Positions 2,477-57,773 of a DNA stretch of 64,000 bases are shown here, in pieces. Below the pieces are notes generated by a model. It searched no databases, was not told where the DNA came from, and saw nothing but the letters and a program-made list of their open reading frames with translations. Source of the DNA: Escherichia coli (lineage in GTDB: Bacteria; Pseudomonadota; Gammaproteobacteria; Enterobacterales; Enterobacteriaceae); NCBI RefSeq assembly GCF_001677475.2, contig NZ_CP015229.1. The stretch is one strand, 5' to 3'. Position numbers and translations under genes: made by a program. How positions within the stretch are numbered: the stretch's first letter is position 1; the number at the start of each line of letters is the position of its first letter.

Positions 2477-3394
2477 TTAGCTCACCAATTGCCACTGCCT
2501 TTTTTCCATCACTGGAGAACTAATCACTGACATTAACAACTCTTTCACTGCTTGCGCCTGTGGTGATAAGTTCGCTCTGGCGGGTAAATTTAATGACAAA
2601 GAGAGACTCATGGAAGGTGTGGTAATGCGTGACATCCACCCGTTTACTGCGCCACATAACGAACGCGCGGCCGATTCGGGTAATACTGCAACGCCCATGC
2701 CGCTGGCAATCGCTGCGGTAAGCGTGGCAATAGACTCAATTTCACCAATGACTTTTGCCGTGAGCCGCCGTAGGGAAAAAGCCTCATCAACACGAAGTCT
2801 AATAGCACTGTAATCACTGGGGAGAAAGAGGTTCATTTGCGCAATAGCATTAACATCAACGCTTTGCCCCGGGCAATCTTGAGTTCCTACCAGGAAAAGA
2901 TCTTCTTTCAGCAAAGCCTGACTGGATACACCAGCCACAGGGGAATGCTCATAAATCACCGCCATATCGAGTTGATGATTTATCAGTTTTTCGTTAAGTA
3001 CTGCACCGCTATTTTCATGAAGATAGATAACGATCTCCGGGAATTCAGCGCGAACCGCCTGTAATAAGGGCATGGTGATGGATGACGCTGCGGTTCCTGG
3101 CGCAAAGCCAATCGAGACTTGCCCCGATAATGCCTGACCAACGTTATGCACCGCCAGTTGGGCCTGCTCACACTGACGTAAAATGGCCCGCGCATGGGTA
3201 TAGAGAATTTTTCCGGCGTCTGTTGGCGTAACGCCCCGTTTTGTGCGAATCAAAAGTTGTTGATTTAACTCACCTTCCAGTGTGGCAACCTGCTGACTGA
3301 GCGCTGGTTGTGCGATATGCAATACTTCAGCAGCCTGGGTCAGGCTACCAATATCTACAATTTTTACGAAGTATTTCAGGCGTCTGAAGTTCAT
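2477..3394 (-). CDS. nac: Nitrogen assimilation control protein Nac (LysR family)
   Basis: MNFRRLKYFVKIVDIGSLTQAAEVLHIAQPALSQQVATLEGELNQQLLIRTKRG...; tracker ORF starts 10 codons earlier, true start taken at MNFRR. Confidence 0.9.
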   Translation of the reverse strand: MNFRRLKYFVKIVDIGSLTQAAEVLHIAQPALSQQVATLEGELNQQLLIRTKRGVTPTDAGKILYTHARAILRQCEQAQLAVHNVGQALSGQVSIGFAPGTAASSITMPLLQAVRAEFPEIVIYLHENSGAVLNEKLINHQLDMAVIYEHSPVAGVSSQALLKEDLFLVGTQDCPGQSVDVNAIAQMNLFLPSDYSAIRLRVDEAFSLRRLTAKVIGEIESIATLTAAIASGMGVAVLPESAARSLCGAVNGWMSRITTPSMSLSLSLNLPARANLSPQAQAVKELLMSVISSPVMEKRQWQLVS

Positions 3395-3450
3395 GTTGCC
3401 TCCGGTGTTTAAGAATCGGCACAAGTGCCGCCATTACTTACAACCAGAGT

Positions 3451-3466
3451 GCAAGATGCTTGCCAG
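3451..3466 (-). promoter_or_regulatory. sigma-54 (-24/-12) promoter of nac
   Basis: Minus strand reads TGGCAAGCATCTTGCA (GG-N10-GC) about 56 bp upstream of the nac start. Confidence 0.6.
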
Positions 3467-3580
3467 TTTTATTTTGGCGTTGATGTACAAGCTAACCAGC
3501 TGTCAAATAAGAGATTATGATAGATTCGTCATTGGCTCCTTTAATCAGCTGTCGCGTTCCCCTGCCCTATAAAAGGAGGG

Positions 3581-3597
3581 TATGCACCACGATGGTT
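3581..3597. promoter_or_regulatory. Putative NtrC binding site upstream of nac
   Basis: TGCACCACGATGGTTCA resembles the NtrC consensus TGCACCA-N3-TGGTGCA. Confidence 0.45.
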
Positions 3598-3720
3598 CAT
3601 TACCCAATAAGATTGAAAGCTCACCACTTTGTTGAAATTGACAGCAAACAAACAAAAAAATGCATTTCACCCTTTGACATCACCATGCACTGCCATTAAT
3701 ATGCGCCCCGTTCACACGAT

Positions 3721-3796
3721 TCCTCTGTAGTTCAGTCGGTAGAACGGCGGACTGTTAATCCGTATGTCACTGGTTCGAGTCCAGTCAGAGGAGCCA
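3721..3796 (+). tRNA. asnV: tRNA-Asn (anticodon GUU)
   Basis: 76-nt sequence TCCTCTGTAGTTCAGTCGGTAGAACGGCGGACTGTTAATCCGTATGTCACTGGTTCGAGTCCAGTCAGAGGAGCCA with cloverleaf and CCA end. Confidence 0.97.
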
Positions 3797-3802
3797 AATT
3801 CA

Positions 3803-3830
3803 AAAAAGCCTGCTTTTAAGCAGGCTTTTT
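3803..3830 (+). terminator. Rho-independent terminator after tRNA-Asn
   Basis: Hairpin AAAGCCTGCTTTTAAGCAGGCTTTTT followed by a T-run. Confidence 0.8.
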
Positions 3831-3851
3831 GCTTTGTAATTACCAACGCTC

Positions 3852-4787
3852 TTAAAACATCTGTCTTGAACCAGAACTAATTTGCACAGGCATTCCCGAT
3901 CGTCGTTGCAACGCAGCATTTGCGCGATTTACATCAACTTCTTGCCCGTTGATAAACGCCCGCAAAGATGGGGTTACCGGCAATGGTACTTTTCGGTCAG
4001 ACTCATATTCTGCACGATTGCGCGACAGCGGCTCATGAACTTCCAGCCACTTTGAACCATCCGGTTCCGTTGTGTATTTCACTGGCTGATCAATAATTTG
4101 AACACGAGTACCTACAGGAACATTATCAAACAGATATTTGATATCGTCATTGCGCAGACGAATACAGCCCTGACTTACCCGGAGCCCAATACCAAAATTG
4201 GCATTGGTACCGTGGATGGCATACAACCTGCCAATATAAATCGCGTACAGCCCCATGGGATTATCGGGACCCGCAGGAACAAATGCGGGCAAACTCTCCC
4301 CTCGTTTCGCATATTCGCGCCGAGTGTTCGGCGTTGGCGTCCAGGTTGGAGCTTCTTGTTTACGTTCAACGGTAGTCACCCAGTTACGCGGGGTTTCTCG
4401 CCCAGCCTGGCCGATACCAATAGGAAAGACTTCCACAGTATTACTGTCTGGCGGGTAGTAATAAAGACGCATCTCAGCGACGTTAACCACAATCCCTTTA
4501 CGAACAGTGGCGGGCAAAATCAGTTGCTGCGGAATGGTGAGTTGTGAGCCAGACTTCGGTAAAAAAACATCAGCGCCCGGATTCGCTTCCAGCATATTAC
4601 TTAACCCTTGCCCGTATTGTGCGGCAAAAGTCTCCAGCGGCTGAGTATTGTGATTAGGAACAGTTACAGTAAGCGACTGCCCCACTAAACGGCTACCCTC
4701 TGGAGGTAATGGATAAGTTACCGCCAGGCTATTTTGGCTGGCAAAAAGCAGAGCAAATGAGCAAAGAATATTTACACGACGCATCAT
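3852..4787 (-). CDS. ldtA: L,D-transpeptidase LdtA (ErfK)
   Basis: 311 aa with signal peptide and YkuD-type L,D-transpeptidase domain, matching ErfK as I recall it. Confidence 0.9.
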
Positions 4788-42942: not shown

Positions 42943-42949
<7 letters not shown>

Positions 42950-43554
42950 CAGAACAACAACGTCGCGAACTGGACTGGGAAAAAACTGACGGACTGATGC
43001 CGGTGATTGTTCAACACGCGGTATCTGGCGAAGTGCTAATGCTGGGCTATATGAACCCGGAAGCCTTAGACAAAACCATCGAAAGCGGCAAAGTCACCTT
43101 CTTCTCGCGCACTAAACAGCGACTGTGGACCAAAGGCGAAACGTCGGGTAATTTCCTCAACGTAGTGAGCATTGCGCCGGACTGCGACAACGACACTTTA
43201 TTAGTGCTGGCGAATCCCATCGGCCCGACCTGCCACAAAGGCACCAGCAGCTGCTTCGGTGACACCGCTCACCAGTGGCTGTTCCTCTATCAACTGGAAC
43301 AACTGCTTGCCGAACGTAAATCTGCCGATCCGGAAACCTCCTACACTGCCAAACTGTATGCCAGCGGCACCAAACGCATCGCGCAGAAAGTGGGCGAAGA
43401 AGGCGTGGAAACCGCACTAGCAGCAACGGTACATGACCGCTTTGAGCTGACCAACGAGGCATCTGACTTGATGTATCACCTGCTGGTGCTGTTGCAGGAT
43501 CAGGACCTGGATTTAACGACGGTGATTGAGAACCTGCGTAAACGGCATCAGTGA
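42943..43554 (+). CDS. hisI: Bifunctional phosphoribosyl-AMP cyclohydrolase / phosphoribosyl-ATP pyrophosphatase
   Basis: 203 aa [42 protein letters not shown]... Confidence 0.97.
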
Positions 43555-43595: not shown

Positions 43596-43638
43596 AAAAA
43601 AAAACGGGCAAGGTGTCACCACCCTGCCCATTTTCTTT
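43596..43638. terminator. Bidirectional rho-independent terminator between convergent hisI and wzzB
   Basis: A9 tract, hairpin GGGCAAGGTGTCACCACCCTGCCC, then ATTTTCTTT; U-rich tail on either strand. Confidence 0.85.
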
Positions 43639-43651
43639 AAAACCGAAAAGA

Positions 43652-44632
43652 TTACTTCGCGTTGTAATTACGCAGAGCGTTACGCCCCAACACAATCCCC
43701 GCGCCAACCATGCCGCCCAGCAGCACCGCCAGAATCAAGGTAATTGCCTTTTTCGGACTATCGCGACGAATAGGTAACGTCGGTTTCATCACATAACGGT
43801 AAGCATGAATATCAAGATCATCAACTTTTAAGCTTTCGATATCCAGCAGGTTTTGACGAGTCTGATAGTAGTTTGGTGAGAACACCAACGGACGGGTCGC
43901 TTCATGTTTAATCATCGACTCCAGCGCTTCGCTACCCAAAAGGAACAACGTATCTTGCGTCACATCTTCAGTCTGCTGAACCTGTGGCTTTGTCACCTGC
44001 GCCTGATTCGCATACTGCAACGCTTCCTGAATCTGACGGATACGCAGATCTTTCTGCTCCTGCGCGACTACTTCCTGCGTTCTTAAAGAGTCCTGCAAGT
44101 TTTTCCGTCCCAGAGCAATGTTGTCTTTGAGATCCTTTTCTAGCTCTTGATTCACTTTATCATCAACTTGCTGAATGTATTGGGCCAACTTCATTTGTGC
44201 GCCCTCTGCAGTTTGCCCAACATAAGAAACAGTCAATGGTAATTGCTGGTTCTTAACAGAAGGTTCGATGGTAAGTTTTTCTGGTTCATCCTGATTATCC
44301 AGCGTTTCTGCTAATGCAGAGAAGGCAGAACTGAAGCGACCAATTAACGTCTCCTGCAAATCCGATACTTTCGGTGCAGCCTGACCATAGATAACATTCA
44401 TGGCATTGTTATAGCCAGCAATTTGCCCCACGTCGGGCTGAGTGATAATTGCTGTTGACGTCCATTTCTCCTTCGCAACTGCCAAATATCCAATAGCCAG
44501 GGCAATAGCCACAATGACGGAAATGATGATTGTCATCTTGCCACGCCACAACTGCACTAGTAAATCAATCAAATCAATCTGTTCTGGGTCATTATTTTGC
44601 CCAGAAACATTATTATTTTCTACTCTCATCAT
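43652..44632 (-). CDS. wzzB: O-antigen chain length determinant (polysaccharide co-polymerase Wzz)
   Basis: MRVENNNVSGQNNDPEQIDLIDLLVQLWRGKMTIIISVIVAIALAIG...; start taken at MRVEN. Confidence 0.95.
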   Translation of the reverse strand: MMRVENNNVSGQNNDPEQIDLIDLLVQLWRGKMTIIISVIVAIALAIGYLAVAKEKWTSTAIITQPDVGQIAGYNNAMNVIYGQAAPKVSDLQETLIGRFSSAFSALAETLDNQDEPEKLTIEPSVKNQQLPLTVSYVGQTAEGAQMKLAQYIQQVDDKVNQELEKDLKDNIALGRKNLQDSLRTQEVVAQEQKDLRIRQIQEALQYANQAQVTKPQVQQTEDVTQDTLFLLGSEALESMIKHEATRPLVFSPNYYQTRQNLLDIESLKVDDLDIHAYRYVMKPTLPIRRDSPKKAITLILAVLLGGMVGAGIVLGRNALRNYNAK

Positions 44633-44774
44633 TACCCTAACTGACGGAAATTTCCAAGTCCGCATAGTTTAGCGATAATCCTCGTGAATGCTATAGGATA
44701 AGTGATAAAAATAATGAATTGTTGCGTAAGTAACAAAAGACAATCAGGGCGTAAATAGCCCTGATAACAAGATG

Positions 44775-52808: not shown

Positions 52809-53942
52809 TTAACGCTCCAGAGAAACCGAAACATCATAACCATGGCTTTTAAGAAGTGCATGTTGTTTCGCTTTTAACAAATCGCTAGCAACCATTTCTG
52901 CACACATCTCTTCAACTGTAATCTCTGGTTCCCAGCCTAATAGATTTTTTGCTTTTGCAGGGTCACCTAAGAGTGTTTCAACTTCAGCAGGACGGAAATA
53001 ACGAGGATCAACCCGAACTATAACGTCTCCAACATTTACACCAATAGCACAATCGGAAACTTTATTAACTACTGTGGCTATCTCATCTACACCCTCACCA
53101 GTGAATTCAAGTTCAAGTCCGACTTCTTTAGCAGCCATACGGACAAATTCACGCACAGATATCTGTTTACCTGTGGCGATGACAAAATCCTCTGGATGAT
53201 CTTGCTGAAGCATCATCCATTGCATGCGAACATAATCTTTAGCGTGTCCCCAGTCACGCAACGAATCCAGATTACCCAAATATAAGCATTGTTCGATCCC
53301 CTGAGAAATATTAGCTATTGCACGAGTAATTTTACGAGTAACAAAAGTTTCTCCACGGCGTGGCGATTCATGGTTAAAAAGAATACCATTACAAGCATAT
53401 ATACCATAAGATTCACGGTAGTTAACTGTTATCCAGTAAGCATACATCTTAGCTACAGCATAAGGCGAACGCGGGTAGAATGGAGTTGTTTCACGCTGAG
53501 GAATCTCTTGCACTAAACCAAAAAGTTCTGAAGTAGATGCTTGATAGAAACGTGTTTTTTTCTCCAGCCCACAGATTCGTATTGCTTCTAATAAACGTAA
53601 TGTACCTATTGCATCTACATCTGCTGTATATTCTGGTGACTCGAATGATACTGCGACATGGGATTGTGCACCAAGGTTATAAATTTCATCCGGTTGAATT
53701 TCTTGGATTAAACGGATCAGATTCGATGTATCTGTTAAATCCCCATAGTGTAAAATAAAATTAGGCTCATCAACGAATCGTGATTGATATATATGATCAA
53801 TTCTATCAGTGTTAAATGACGATGCTCGGCGTTTTATACCATGTACTTCATAACCTTTTTCAATAAGAAATTCAGCAAGATATGAACCATCTTGTCCAGT
53901 TACGCCTGTGATAAATGCAACTTTTTTATTCATTTTAATCAT
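52809..53942 (-). CDS. gmd: GDP-mannose 4,6-dehydratase (true start may be 9 nt downstream, at [10 protein letters not shown])
   Basis: 377 aa; [19 protein letters not shown]... SDR-type dehydratase. Confidence 0.95.
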
Positions 53943-53951
53943 GTTATGTTC

Positions 53952-54983
53952 CTAAATATTCAACTCATTATAAACTTTAATCGTTTCATTAACACATTTT
54001 GACCATGAAAATTTTTGCGCCTGCAGTAAACCTCTTTCGATCATAACATTTCTTTTTAAATTAACTAATTCTAAAGCTTCTTTTAACGTAAACTCATTAA
54101 TATCATCAATATAAATAGGCGCATTCCCCCCTACTTCCGGCAACGAGGATGTGTTTGCACAAATAACTGGACATCCGGCCTGCATAGCTTCTAGGACAGG
54201 TATTCCAAACCCCTCATAACTGGAAGGGTAAACAAGTGCATATGCAGTATTATACTGTATATTTAAATCTTCATTACTCAAAAATGTAAAATGTTCATAT
54301 CTATTTTTTAAATATTTTTCAAGGAGTTCTCTTTCATATTTTTTAAGCGAGCCTCCGCCTACAATTGTAAGCTTTAAGCCATGTAATTTCCCTACAGCTT
54401 TGACTGCAAGAACGAAATTTTTATAACCTTCTCTGGCACCGACAAACAAAACTGAATTATTTACTCTCATATCAGATATGTTAGAAATATGTTTATATGA
54501 TGGGGATACACCATTATAAATCACTCTAATTTTATCTTCACTAATTGGACAGTACTTAAGTAAATCTCTAGCAGTGTTGTTTGAAATACAAATTACGATA
54601 TCACTATTCTTGATAGCATGATATTTTTGAAGAGAATGAATAAATTTTGACATTCCTCCCCTGTATTTTTCATAGGTAAAATCATGAACAGTTGTAACAT
54701 TTTTCACATTCAAATTAGGATTTTTATGAACTCGATAATAACTTGAGTGTAAAACCCTAGTTTTAATATCACTTACATTTCTATATCTTTCTAAAATTCT
54801 TGGCTCACGATATTGCAACTTTAAGTCACTTGTATCAAACTCAAATTCTTTATTTTTATACAATAGAATTTCAGCTTGGTAATTTGATTTCACCATTCCT
54901 TGGATCAACTCATTAAAGTATACACTTATTCCACCAAATGATTGGAGATTATAAATAATCCCATCGATAGTTACCATTATCAT
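53952..54983 (-). CDS. Glycosyltransferase, family 4 (GT-B)
   Basis: 343 aa with EGFGIPVLEAMQAGCPVI motif. Confidence 0.82.
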   Translation of the reverse strand: MIMVTIDGIIYNLQSFGGISVYFNELIQGMVKSNYQAEILLYKNKEFEFDTSDLKLQYREPRILERYRNVSDIKTRVLHSSYYRVHKNPNLNVKNVTTVHDFTYEKYRGGMSKFIHSLQKYHAIKNSDIVICISNNTARDLLKYCPISEDKIRVIYNGVSPSYKHISNISDMRVNNSVLFVGAREGYKNFVLAVKAVGKLHGLKLTIVGGGSLKKYERELLEKYLKNRYEHFTFLSNEDLNIQYNTAYALVYPSSYEGFGIPVLEAMQAGCPVICANTSSLPEVGGNAPIYIDDINEFTLKEALELVNLKRNVMIERGLLQAQKFSWSKCVNETIKVYNELNI

Positions 54984-56236
54984 CGCCCTCGCAAGGTAAT
55001 ACGTTCGATTAGAACGAACAATATCAAAAAGAAGATCAGTAACAATACATATGCAGGCCCAGAAAAATAAGTTCCAAATGAAGGTGAAATGAGAATTATA
55101 GAAAGCAAAAAATAGGATGCAGAGTTCGTAATTACTTTTGCATTAAACATTTTAAGCTTAGCAAAAATATAGCCATAAAAGATATTCATAGGTGAAAGAA
55201 AAGTTAAAATGACCAGTCCAACATATCCATAATCAACAAAATTATCCATCCCTTTTGAAAAAGCAGGTGTATGCCCCGACTCTGCAGCTCCTGGATAATA
55301 GATTTCATTTACATGCAGAAATCCATATACAAAAGGTTTATCAGGAAACAAACCTCTCGGTATATAAGACCAAAACTGGCTGAAATAGACTGTGCCATTG
55401 AAAAATTTAACCACACCTTTATCAATATCTTGCAGCAAATAAATACTGTTTTGATACTGGTCAAAATAAGACAATACTACATCGACATTCATATTTCCAA
55501 TAGCTAAAAATAAATTATAGAGAATGGCACACGCTGCCAGAGGTGTAACTAAAATCAGGCCAAATTTTAGAAATCTAGATTTATTAAGACTTAACACTGC
55601 AAGATAAAAAATCGCAAATGAAAGAATAAAGGTTTTCGATCCAAGAAAAAAAACCAAGGTACAATAGAATATCGCGCATAAAAATAATTTTATTTCCGAG
55701 CGTAAAGCCAACGCTCTAGAAAAATAAGATACTGAAAGCATACTTAAAGAAAAGGCATACAAAAAACCATTACCTTCTCGATAGTTTTGATAACCATCCC
55801 TGGGATTCGTCAACCATCCAGAAATACCTATTTCTGACTTTGAAGAAAGAAGAACAAATAATGTAACAAACAGAACCAATGTAATATTTGATATTCTTTT
55901 TAATTTTGTATGCGAAATTAAGCAAGTTAAATAGCTCTCTCTATTTTTGAATATTATATTAAAAATAAAATAAAATAAAATTATAGATAAAACACCCACA
56001 AAAGAGTATATGTTATATATGAATAAAGCCTCATTATAATATTGATTTAACGCAAAGTCTGAACCATAGAAAAGAGGGGCCAGAATATTTTCCAATAGAA
56101 AAACCGGGAATAAAATAATGGCGCAAATGGTAAAGGGATTGATAATTGTAAGTCTTAGCGTTTTCGTCGCTAATAAAGAAAAAGAAAAATATAGTACTAC
56201 AGCGAGTGTAACATTTAAACAATATATTATTACCAC
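54980..56236 (-). CDS. wzy: Putative O-antigen polymerase Wzy
   Basis: 418 aa, about 10-12 predicted TM helices with a large loop; position inside the O-antigen cluster; very AT-rich. Confidence 0.7.
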   Translation of the reverse strand: MVIIYCLNVTLAVVLYFSFSLLATKTLRLTIINPFTICAIILFPVFLLENILAPLFYGSDFALNQYYNEALFIYNIYSFVGVLSIILFYFIFNIIFKNRESYLTCLISHTKLKRISNITLVLFVTLFVLLSSKSEIGISGWLTNPRDGYQNYREGNGFLYAFSLSMLSVSYFSRALALRSEIKLFLCAIFYCTLVFFLGSKTFILSFAIFYLAVLSLNKSRFLKFGLILVTPLAACAILYNLFLAIGNMNVDVVLSYFDQYQNSIYLLQDIDKGVVKFFNGTVYFSQFWSYIPRGLFPDKPFVYGFLHVNEIYYPGAAESGHTPAFSKGMDNFVDYGYVGLVILTFLSPMNIFYGYIFAKLKMFNAKVITNSASYFLLSIILISPSFGTYFSGPAYVLLLIFFLILFVLIERITLRGR

Positions 56237-56246
56237 ATCCTCTCCC

Positions 56247-57062: not shown

Positions 57063-57773
57063 TCACTTATTTTTCATAGCAATATATTTTAATCTTAATT
57101 CTTTAATTAATGTCTTTACTTTACTATCAGTGGAATACTCAATATTAAACGTGCCAGAGACTCCTCTTATTTTGGGAATAGTTGTTCCAATAACTCCTTT
57201 TAATTTATTATTTTTAATTTGCTCAAAAAAAATGTGTTCTAAATAAACACCATCAAGGTCACGCACAGATTTATAAGAATTAGCAAAAAAGTCCCAATAT
57301 ATTTTTTTATTTACAACATAAAATCTTGTATCAATCATATTTTCATTCAGAAAAGGAACTGGTATAAAAAAAGCTTTACCATTGAATGCATTTATACATT
57401 GCTTATAATTATCGACGTATAGTTTTGATGTTATTTTTGCAAAACTTTCAGCATTAGACAAATAGCGGCTATTCATTAATGCATACTCAATTATTTCACC
57501 CTCTCCGTAACCTTTACCATAAGATTGAACACTTTCTATATCATTTTTGAAATGTATTATCTCGATCGAATCTTTATTAAGTATTTGTTTATCATTATGA
57601 ATATCTTTCGTCAAATCATAATCACTACCATCACATATTACTATAGAATCAGCATTCTTTGACAACTCTCTTATCGCTTTCAATGTATGTAATAATCTTG
57701 AATTTTCATCAGAAAGATTTGTAAGAGGAGCATTAGGTGAGATACAAGAAGTCACTAATACTGGGATTTTCAT
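57063..57773 (-). CDS. Putative O-antigen glycosyltransferase, family unassigned (236 aa from MKIPVLVTS)
   Basis: ATG overlaps the wzx stop (ATGA); the tracker ORF extends 46 codons further, into wzx; no recognisable GT2/GT4 signature. Confidence 0.55.
   Translation of the reverse strand: MKIPVLVTSCISPNAPLTNLSDENSRLLHTLKAIRELSKNADSIVICDGSDYDLTKDIHNDKQILNKDSIEIIHFKNDIESVQSYGKGYGEGEIIEYALMNSRYLSNAESFAKITSKLYVDNYKQCINAFNGKAFFIPVPFLNENMIDTRFYVVNKKIYWDFFANSYKSVRDLDGVYLEHIFFEQIKNNKLKGVIGTTIPKIRGVSGTFNIEYSTDSKVKTLIKELRLKYIAMKNK

Follow-up and report, generated by a model that had tools for sequence, protein, structure and literature searches.

The run of eight A residues at 55646–55653 (AAAAAAAA on the plus strand; T8 on the minus, coding strand) in the O36-family O-antigen polymerase gene wzy is probably an incidental product of base composition rather than an evolved switch, and the main loss-of-function hotspot of the gene, where OFF alleles are tolerated and spread. 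The data establish recurrent natural slippage at this tract; they do not establish evolved reversible phase variation. The tract lies in a 64,000-nucleotide stretch of Escherichia coli DNA, analysed as a whole and here called the window.

The open reading frame at 54980–56236 (minus strand, 418 codons plus stop, GTG start) was accepted as wzy on context, naming and topology; its polymerase activity is predicted. Database entries identical to the window protein (P0015, 46 contigs) bear the NCBI name “O36 family O-antigen polymerase”, and among 5,426 complete E. coli genomes, eight have the gene under the same name, at 97–99% identity. By deposited name and complete-genome annotation, the putative O-antigen polymerase of the first-pass annotation is thus an O36-family wzy. 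TIGR04370 (glyco_rpt_poly, oligosaccharide repeat unit polymerase) matched end to end, with E = 1.4e-6 and 27.6 bits, below the cutoff of 40. Pfam gave no match for the window protein or for nine of ten homologues, and one weak Wzy_C match (E = 0.011). The protein was collinear with homologues down to 30% identity. Hydropathy revealed multiple hydrophobic spans, and an AlphaFold (AF2) model from ten homologues (pLDDT 81, pTM 0.84) was all-helical and polytopic with ~11–12 long helices, having the ~10 or more transmembrane helices looked for. The cluster order is rmlBDAC-wzx-hypothetical-GT2-wzy-GT4-gmd-fcl-gmm-manC, of the Wzx/Wzy type and without ABC-transporter genes. The wzx gene matched Polysacc_synt (E = 4e-24), and RefSeq contexts had the same gene order. 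According to a passage of PMC7685785, the O36 O-antigen structure and gene cluster were published by Perepelov 2014.

The translation start of wzy (56234–56245, minus strand) comprises a Shine-Dalgarno-like GGAGAGG (56239–56245) and the GTG (56234–56236), and deposited Wzy proteins start at the same GTG. An out-of-frame mini-ORF, ATG-TGG-TAA, overlaps this GTG (ATGTG; window 56234–56246). The GGAGAGG motif is only 2 nt upstream of the start overlap, and the start-region sequence is the same in all nine alleles. At the other end, the wzy stop overlaps the first ATG of the downstream GT4 ORF (343-aa reading) in an ATGA at 54980–54983 (minus strand); RefSeq starts GT4 two codons further on, at another ATG (341 aa). 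Judged from this overlap, wzy and GT4 could be translationally coupled, and early termination of wzy could affect downstream expression.

The same local order (hypothetical-GT2-wzy-GT4-gmd) was also found outside E. coli. It occurs on a metagenome contig (L022:1-4281) whose Wzy, deposited for Buttiauxella noackiae (P0003), is 61% identical, and in six loci of cryptic Escherichia clades and E. ruysiae (L015–L020), with 88% identical Wzy. This conserved arrangement suggests that an O36-like antigen cluster may be common to several genera. The 88% identical gene (cluster 2) was absent from the complete-genome set.

The T8 tract occupies gene positions 584–591 and is the longest homopolymer in wzy. 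It covers codons V195 (GTT), F196 (TTT) and F197 (TTT), within TTG GTT TTT TTT CTT GGA TCG, which reads L194, V195, F196, F197, L198, G199, S200. Codon reading of the ORF thus bore out the LVFFLGS translation that the first-pass annotation had given for the site. The in-frame, ON, length is eight. The window gene is uninterrupted and carries T8 at the in-frame length; read in this way, the window copy is ON. The codons for G199-S200-K201 (55634–55642, minus strand) start one codon (L198) past the tract and are invariant in all homologues, and homologue alignments are collinear through the tract down to 22–30% identity. Because these invariant columns follow right after the tract, T8 represents the native, functional frame. 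In the AF2 model, V195–F197 lie at the end of a transmembrane helix (181–196), just before the GSK turn. The predicted products are 418 aa for T8, 214 aa for T7 and 217 aa for T9. The T7 slip truncates Wzy after residue 198. Both T7 and T9 products run on for 19–20 out-of-frame residues before a stop, and neither retains the conserved GSK turn or any of the conserved C-terminal half.

A run of this length is no more than chance would give in such a gene, and is composition-driven. The G + C content of wzy is 31%, and T makes up 42.6% of its coding strand. Simulated first-order Markov sequences had a mean of 1.3 homopolymers of at least 8 nt per gene, with a probability of 0.74 for one or more. 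When synonymous codons were permuted with the protein fixed, a run of at least 8 nt appeared somewhere in 77% of trials, and one of at least eight T at the tract site in 49%. Runs of at least 8 nt were also close to expectation in the 5-kb low-GC core (3 observed, 2.4 expected) and in the whole window (8 observed, 7.5 expected). The corresponding codons are GTG TTT TTT in cluster 2 (cryptic Escherichia clades and E. ruysiae, 88% amino-acid identity), GTA TTT TTT in E. marmotae and GCA TTT TAT in Buttiauxella. As DNA, the tract is therefore interrupted or absent in orthologues with the same or similar residues, and we found neither over-representation nor conservation. It is the third position of a single valine codon (GTT) that makes the run T8. 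The composition simulations and the orthologue codons agree with the first-pass annotation, which had called the tract probably incidental in an AT-rich cluster. Nor is it a conserved slippery site with a conserved second-frame product: the site is not conserved, and the alternative frames stop after 19–20 codons.

The only A9 run in the window (43596–43604) is intergenic. It sits between an ORF at 42943–43554 (plus strand) and one at 43652–44665 (minus strand), right after an inverted repeat (GCGGATGCGA...TCGCATCCGGC).

Tract length varies in nature. Among the eight complete RefSeq genomes, four have uninterrupted alleles with T8 and, upstream in the gene, T5 (T5/T8), like the window. The other four, half of the set, have a frameshifted wzy: three carry identical T4/T7 alleles (L003, L007 and L008), and L004 (SCU-301) combines T7 with an adjacent 2-nt deletion creating a TGA, two further indels and one nonsense codon. 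The T4/T7 allele was found again in an NCTC-project assembly (GCA_900480495.1) and in P0304816-strain draft genomes. JGI metagenome contigs, scanned with a 20-nt anchor beside the tract, gave two relevant contigs, both T4/T7, and one chance match.

We then looked up predicted single-step slip products by exact sequence among ~15 billion proteins. Intact Wzy forms were on 187, 46 and 60 contigs, plus at least 24 with a further intact form, H0. The T4/T7 products were on 364 (181 aa) and 219 (240 aa) contigs, and the T5/T7 product of the same haplotype on 76. The T9 product on the L002 haplotype came from a single contig (L023); over 6.6 kb, the extra T and one SNP are all that separates its DNA from that of L002. 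By contig counts, which are redundant and clone-biased, frameshifted (440) and intact (at least 317) wzy are about equally common. Exact look-ups, which cover only the constructed haplotype backgrounds, did not find T7-only, T9 or T4-only products in the window background, T7-only or T9 products in the L001 background, or T7-only or T4-only products in the L002 background. Frame-compensated T6/T7 alleles, which could also have accounted for the RefSeq/PGAP “frameshifted” labels described below, were likewise not found by exact look-up in the protein collection.

Slipped-strand frameshifting at the tract, raised in the first-pass annotation, thus does occur in nature, and the frameshifted wzy alleles that it proposed to look for across isolates are common (four of eight complete genomes and 440 contigs). 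Tract length, whose invariance in population data it had named as the opposing outcome, is not fixed, as T7, T8 and T9 coexist. A frameshift in O36 wzy goes unmentioned in Iguchi 2015, DebRoy 2016 and a 2019 review, and papers on H. parainfluenzae, Salmonella T1 and P. aeruginosa have subjects other than homopolymer slippage in wzy.

The change was recurrent. L046 (T8) and L031 (T7), from the same project, aligned over 15,097 bp with no mismatch and one gap, the tract itself; both carry A at a SNP 5.9 kb from the tract. L044 (T8) and L034 (T7) aligned over 12,801 bp, again with no mismatch and one gap, and both have G at the 5.9-kb SNP. All four combinations of SNP and tract length exist (counts 6, 2, 15 and 1), a four-gamete pattern. 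It takes two or more independent slips, or else reversion or recombination, to produce it. With L023 and L004 included, the tract changed independently at least three and probably four times.

Other runs in the same loci did not vary. The 8-nt control runs were invariant in wzx (23 of 23) and in the hypothetical gene (26 of 26), as were all 7-nt control runs. The invariant controls imply that length variation in wzy is not assembly noise, and wzy variation reflects which frameshifts are allowed to persist. The uncharacterised gene between wzx and GT2 (236/282 aa) has three A/T runs of 7–8 nt within 150 nt (57225–57232, 57302–57308 and 57366–57372), invariant in every locus compared. It gave no significant Pfam match, only a sub-threshold CK_II_beta (E = 0.009).

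The frameshifted alleles form a stepwise series. Besides the tract, it involves a T5 run at 55720–55724 (minus strand; gene positions 513–517, codons Y171-F172-S173), which is T4 in the derived allele H2, and the R179C SNP at 55702 (minus strand), which is C in the window and T in haplotypes H0, H1 and H2. Nine T5/T7 contigs (H1) were identical in DNA to T4/T7 (H2) except for T5 and the ancestral Ala318 and Ile357, and represent a true intermediate. Restoring T8 in the H1 haplotype gives a 418-aa protein that exists: H0, of which 24 contigs were read. H0 and H1 are identical over 3.2 kb save one T. An H0 version with R179 and Y375 restored was not found by exact look-up. H2 adds T5 to T4, I357V, A318T (at a column with almost no variation) and flanking SNPs; each of the four substitutions found only in the lineage is nonsynonymous. 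The intermediate H1 and the existing H0 together give the order H0 (T5/T8, intact) to H1 (tract slip) to H2.

H2 is the most frequently sequenced O36 wzy allele. Loci with H2 from different continents and hosts have 3–12 differing positions per 20 kb in most pairs, and these few differences indicate one successful lineage. Outside wzy, almost every H1 and H2 locus has an intact O-antigen cluster. In one T4/T7 locus (L027:16491-17913, GCA_000355275.2), two ORFs of 324 and 92 aa are called in place of the 474-aa manB, a further cluster lesion in one H2 strain that fits ongoing decay.

About 95 SNPs, all at the rmlB start, separate H2 from H0 and H1 (L024–L030 against L031/L044; first ~680 bp of the compared region), and L025:1-3200 has ~34 SNPs confined to wcaM-galF. 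Judged from the SNP distribution, these sharp mosaic boundaries are recombination breakpoints around an otherwise near-identical cluster.

The following course of events would account for these alleles. T8 would be a by-product of the AT-rich codons used for Val (GTT), Phe (TTT) and Phe (TTT), followed by a C, in a T-rich gene that encodes a membrane protein. Replication slippage would most readily add or drop one T at the longest homopolymer, giving T7 and T9; in E. coli, indel rates climb exponentially with homopolymer length (PMC8510543). The T7 of H1 would have arisen on intact H0, and H1 would have become H2 with a second frameshift, A318T and I357V. If Wzy loss is tolerated, such alleles would persist and recur, and could spread, by selection (e.g. 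by phage or immunity) or by drift. Phage using the O antigen has been proposed as the pressure for wzy loss in Salmonella (PMC12074656). About half or more of the O36 wzy genes sampled are OFF, a large share for a defect that is no more than tolerated, and there may be positive selection for OFF. A wzy null has semi-rough LPS (core plus one O unit) rather than complete O-antigen loss, and is tolerated. Established knowledge would thus predict semi-rough LPS upon Wzy loss here, and switching the O antigen “on/off”, as the first-pass annotation put it, overstates the expected effect.

The same annotation saw in the tract a cheap place for such switching. Here, T8/T7 slipped-strand mispairing would reversibly toggle O-antigen polymerisation (smooth or semi-rough) at appreciable frequency and be maintained by selection. 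We consider this unlikely, and equally give little credence to a working reversible SSR switch in O36, with T8 and T7 interconverting naturally and OFF favoured under phage or immune pressure. If true, this would make the tract one of the rare SSR-type contingency loci among the LPS genes of E. coli. The tract does lie within an ORF, where a length change shifts the frame, and T7, T8 and T9 are all natural. T8 and T7 occur on otherwise identical 12–15 kb haplotypes within the same sequencing projects, while equal-length tracts in neighbouring genes are invariant. Repeated or bidirectional change would fit the four-gamete pattern; against the reading as an incidental hotspot, this pattern could equally mean T7-to-T8 reversion, that is real reversibility, or recombination. 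However, the tract is expected from composition and absent in orthologues keeping the same amino acids. The dominant OFF lineage carries a second frameshift, irreversible by single-step slippage, and a conserved-residue substitution, which speaks for decay and not toggling. The look-ups gave no single-step OFF variant in the window and L001 backgrounds, nor a T7 variant in the L002 background; these backgrounds together cover 293 contigs. In mismatch-repair-proficient E. coli, an 8-nt run slips at rates orders of magnitude below those of classical contingency loci. Reversible on/off switching is thus not supported: OFF is stably inherited with secondary lesions, the tract is absent in orthologues, and no polarised T7-to-T8 reversion emerged from the data.

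Comparison with known systems gave a similar picture. SSR contingency loci (H. influenzae lic/lgtC tetranucleotides, Neisseria lgt, H. pylori fut, Campylobacter poly-G) share with the O36 tract an in-ORF repeat, a ±1 frameshift of a surface-glycan gene and coexisting lengths. Their tracts are longer or more mutable, over-represented and conserved, with fast reversible switching, often without full mismatch repair. In contrast, the O36 tract is 8 nt, expected from composition and absent in orthologues, and its OFF state is followed by decay. A point mutation in the O6 wzy of E. coli Nissle 1917, reportedly described by Grozdanov et al. in 2002, leads to semi-rough LPS. This too is a successful E. 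coli lineage with an inactivated wzy in an otherwise intact O-antigen cluster, but its lesion is a single substitution to a stop, whereas O36 shows a recurrent −1 homopolymer slip and further lesions. In Salmonella, natural and recurrent polymerase loss within a clade again marks wzy as a tolerated target; the loss in Typhimurium DT8/DT30 is a precedent for reversibility, but by a different mechanism, attL/attR-mediated excision and reacquisition, with reversibility demonstrated there and not for the homopolymer slippage of O36 (PMC12074656).

It is improbable that the T7 alleles are still functional, either through low-level rescue by RNA-polymerase slippage on the U7 run, restoring the frame (H1), or as a split Wzy (H2). 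Bacteria are known to show transcriptional slippage at A/T runs (PMC1088944), the T7 alleles are very common, and the rest of the H1 and H2 cluster is intact in nearly all loci. In the H alleles, the R179C SNP makes an ATG; its frame is the one that a T7 tract connects to the native C-terminal frame. In H2, ORF-N (181 aa) ends 14 nt after the ATG that opens ORF-C (240 aa), a 14-nt overlap proposed to allow translational coupling, and ORF-C rejoins the native frame at L198-G199. However, the R179C SNP is older than the frameshift. As intact H0 already has the T, the ATG is not compensatory, and the idea of a split gene with a compensatory ATG was weakened accordingly. In the split Wzy, out-of-frame sequence would take the place of ~25 native residues, among them the greater part of a transmembrane helix. 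A318T, in the most conserved motif, was fixed after the frameshift. Slippage rescue of H2 needs two simultaneous events, and the clustering of three of six changes within ~80 nt is not significant (~0.2, our own estimate). With slippage and programmed-frameshift sites (PMC1088944; PMC5009743), the run shares U_UUU_UUU, formally a slippery heptamer, and A/T composition, at which RNA polymerase can slip. Unlike those sites, it is unconserved, has no plausible second-frame product, and its length is at or below that where selection against slippage shows.

That the length differences are homopolymer sequencing or assembly errors in a really invariant gene is very hard to believe: homopolymer indels are typical long-read errors, L004 has several scattered indels and the sole T9 comes from one automated assembly, but T7 occurs in many independent assemblies from different sources, both complete and short-read drafts, with equal-length control tracts invariant, T4/T7 is identical in three complete genomes, the NCTC-project assembly, several P0304816 drafts and two metagenome contigs, and T5/T7 was present in nine of nine independent runs sampled, with its own linked SNP states.

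The reading of the tract as an incidental hotspot has practical consequences. With about half or more of public “O36” wzy frameshifted at the tract, in-silico O36 typing probably does not predict smooth LPS, which bears on serotyping, phage-host range, and vaccine or diagnostic inference. The natural series from intact gene to single slip to secondary decay presents an incidental homopolymer as the entry to loss of O-antigen polymerisation, while in wzx and the neighbouring gene, runs of equal length are kept from varying. H0 and H1 provide isogenic-like strain pairs, which make reversibility directly testable.

RefSeq/PGAP marks wzy as “frameshifted” (pseudogene) in all eight complete genomes, four of which have an uninterrupted 418-codon ORF. 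These four are L001, L002, L005 and L006, each at 3001-4257 (NZ_CM143910.1, NZ_CP027447.1, NZ_CM160084.1 and NZ_AP045812.1). Two of them were looked up, giving the exact protein for L002 and a 2-substitution form, P0016, named “O36 family O-antigen polymerase” in GenBank. The PGAP label may go back to an evidence protein that was built from the T7 alleles, which are abundant; on uninterrupted alleles it is an annotation problem. Among the complete genomes, E. coli E06 has the cluster most closely related to that of the window; its gmd (L001:5304-7257) is annotated as C-terminally truncated beside an IS5-like ISKpn26 transposase, which means that the E06 O-antigen cluster was disrupted by a different route. 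In the window, gmd is intact (52809–53942).
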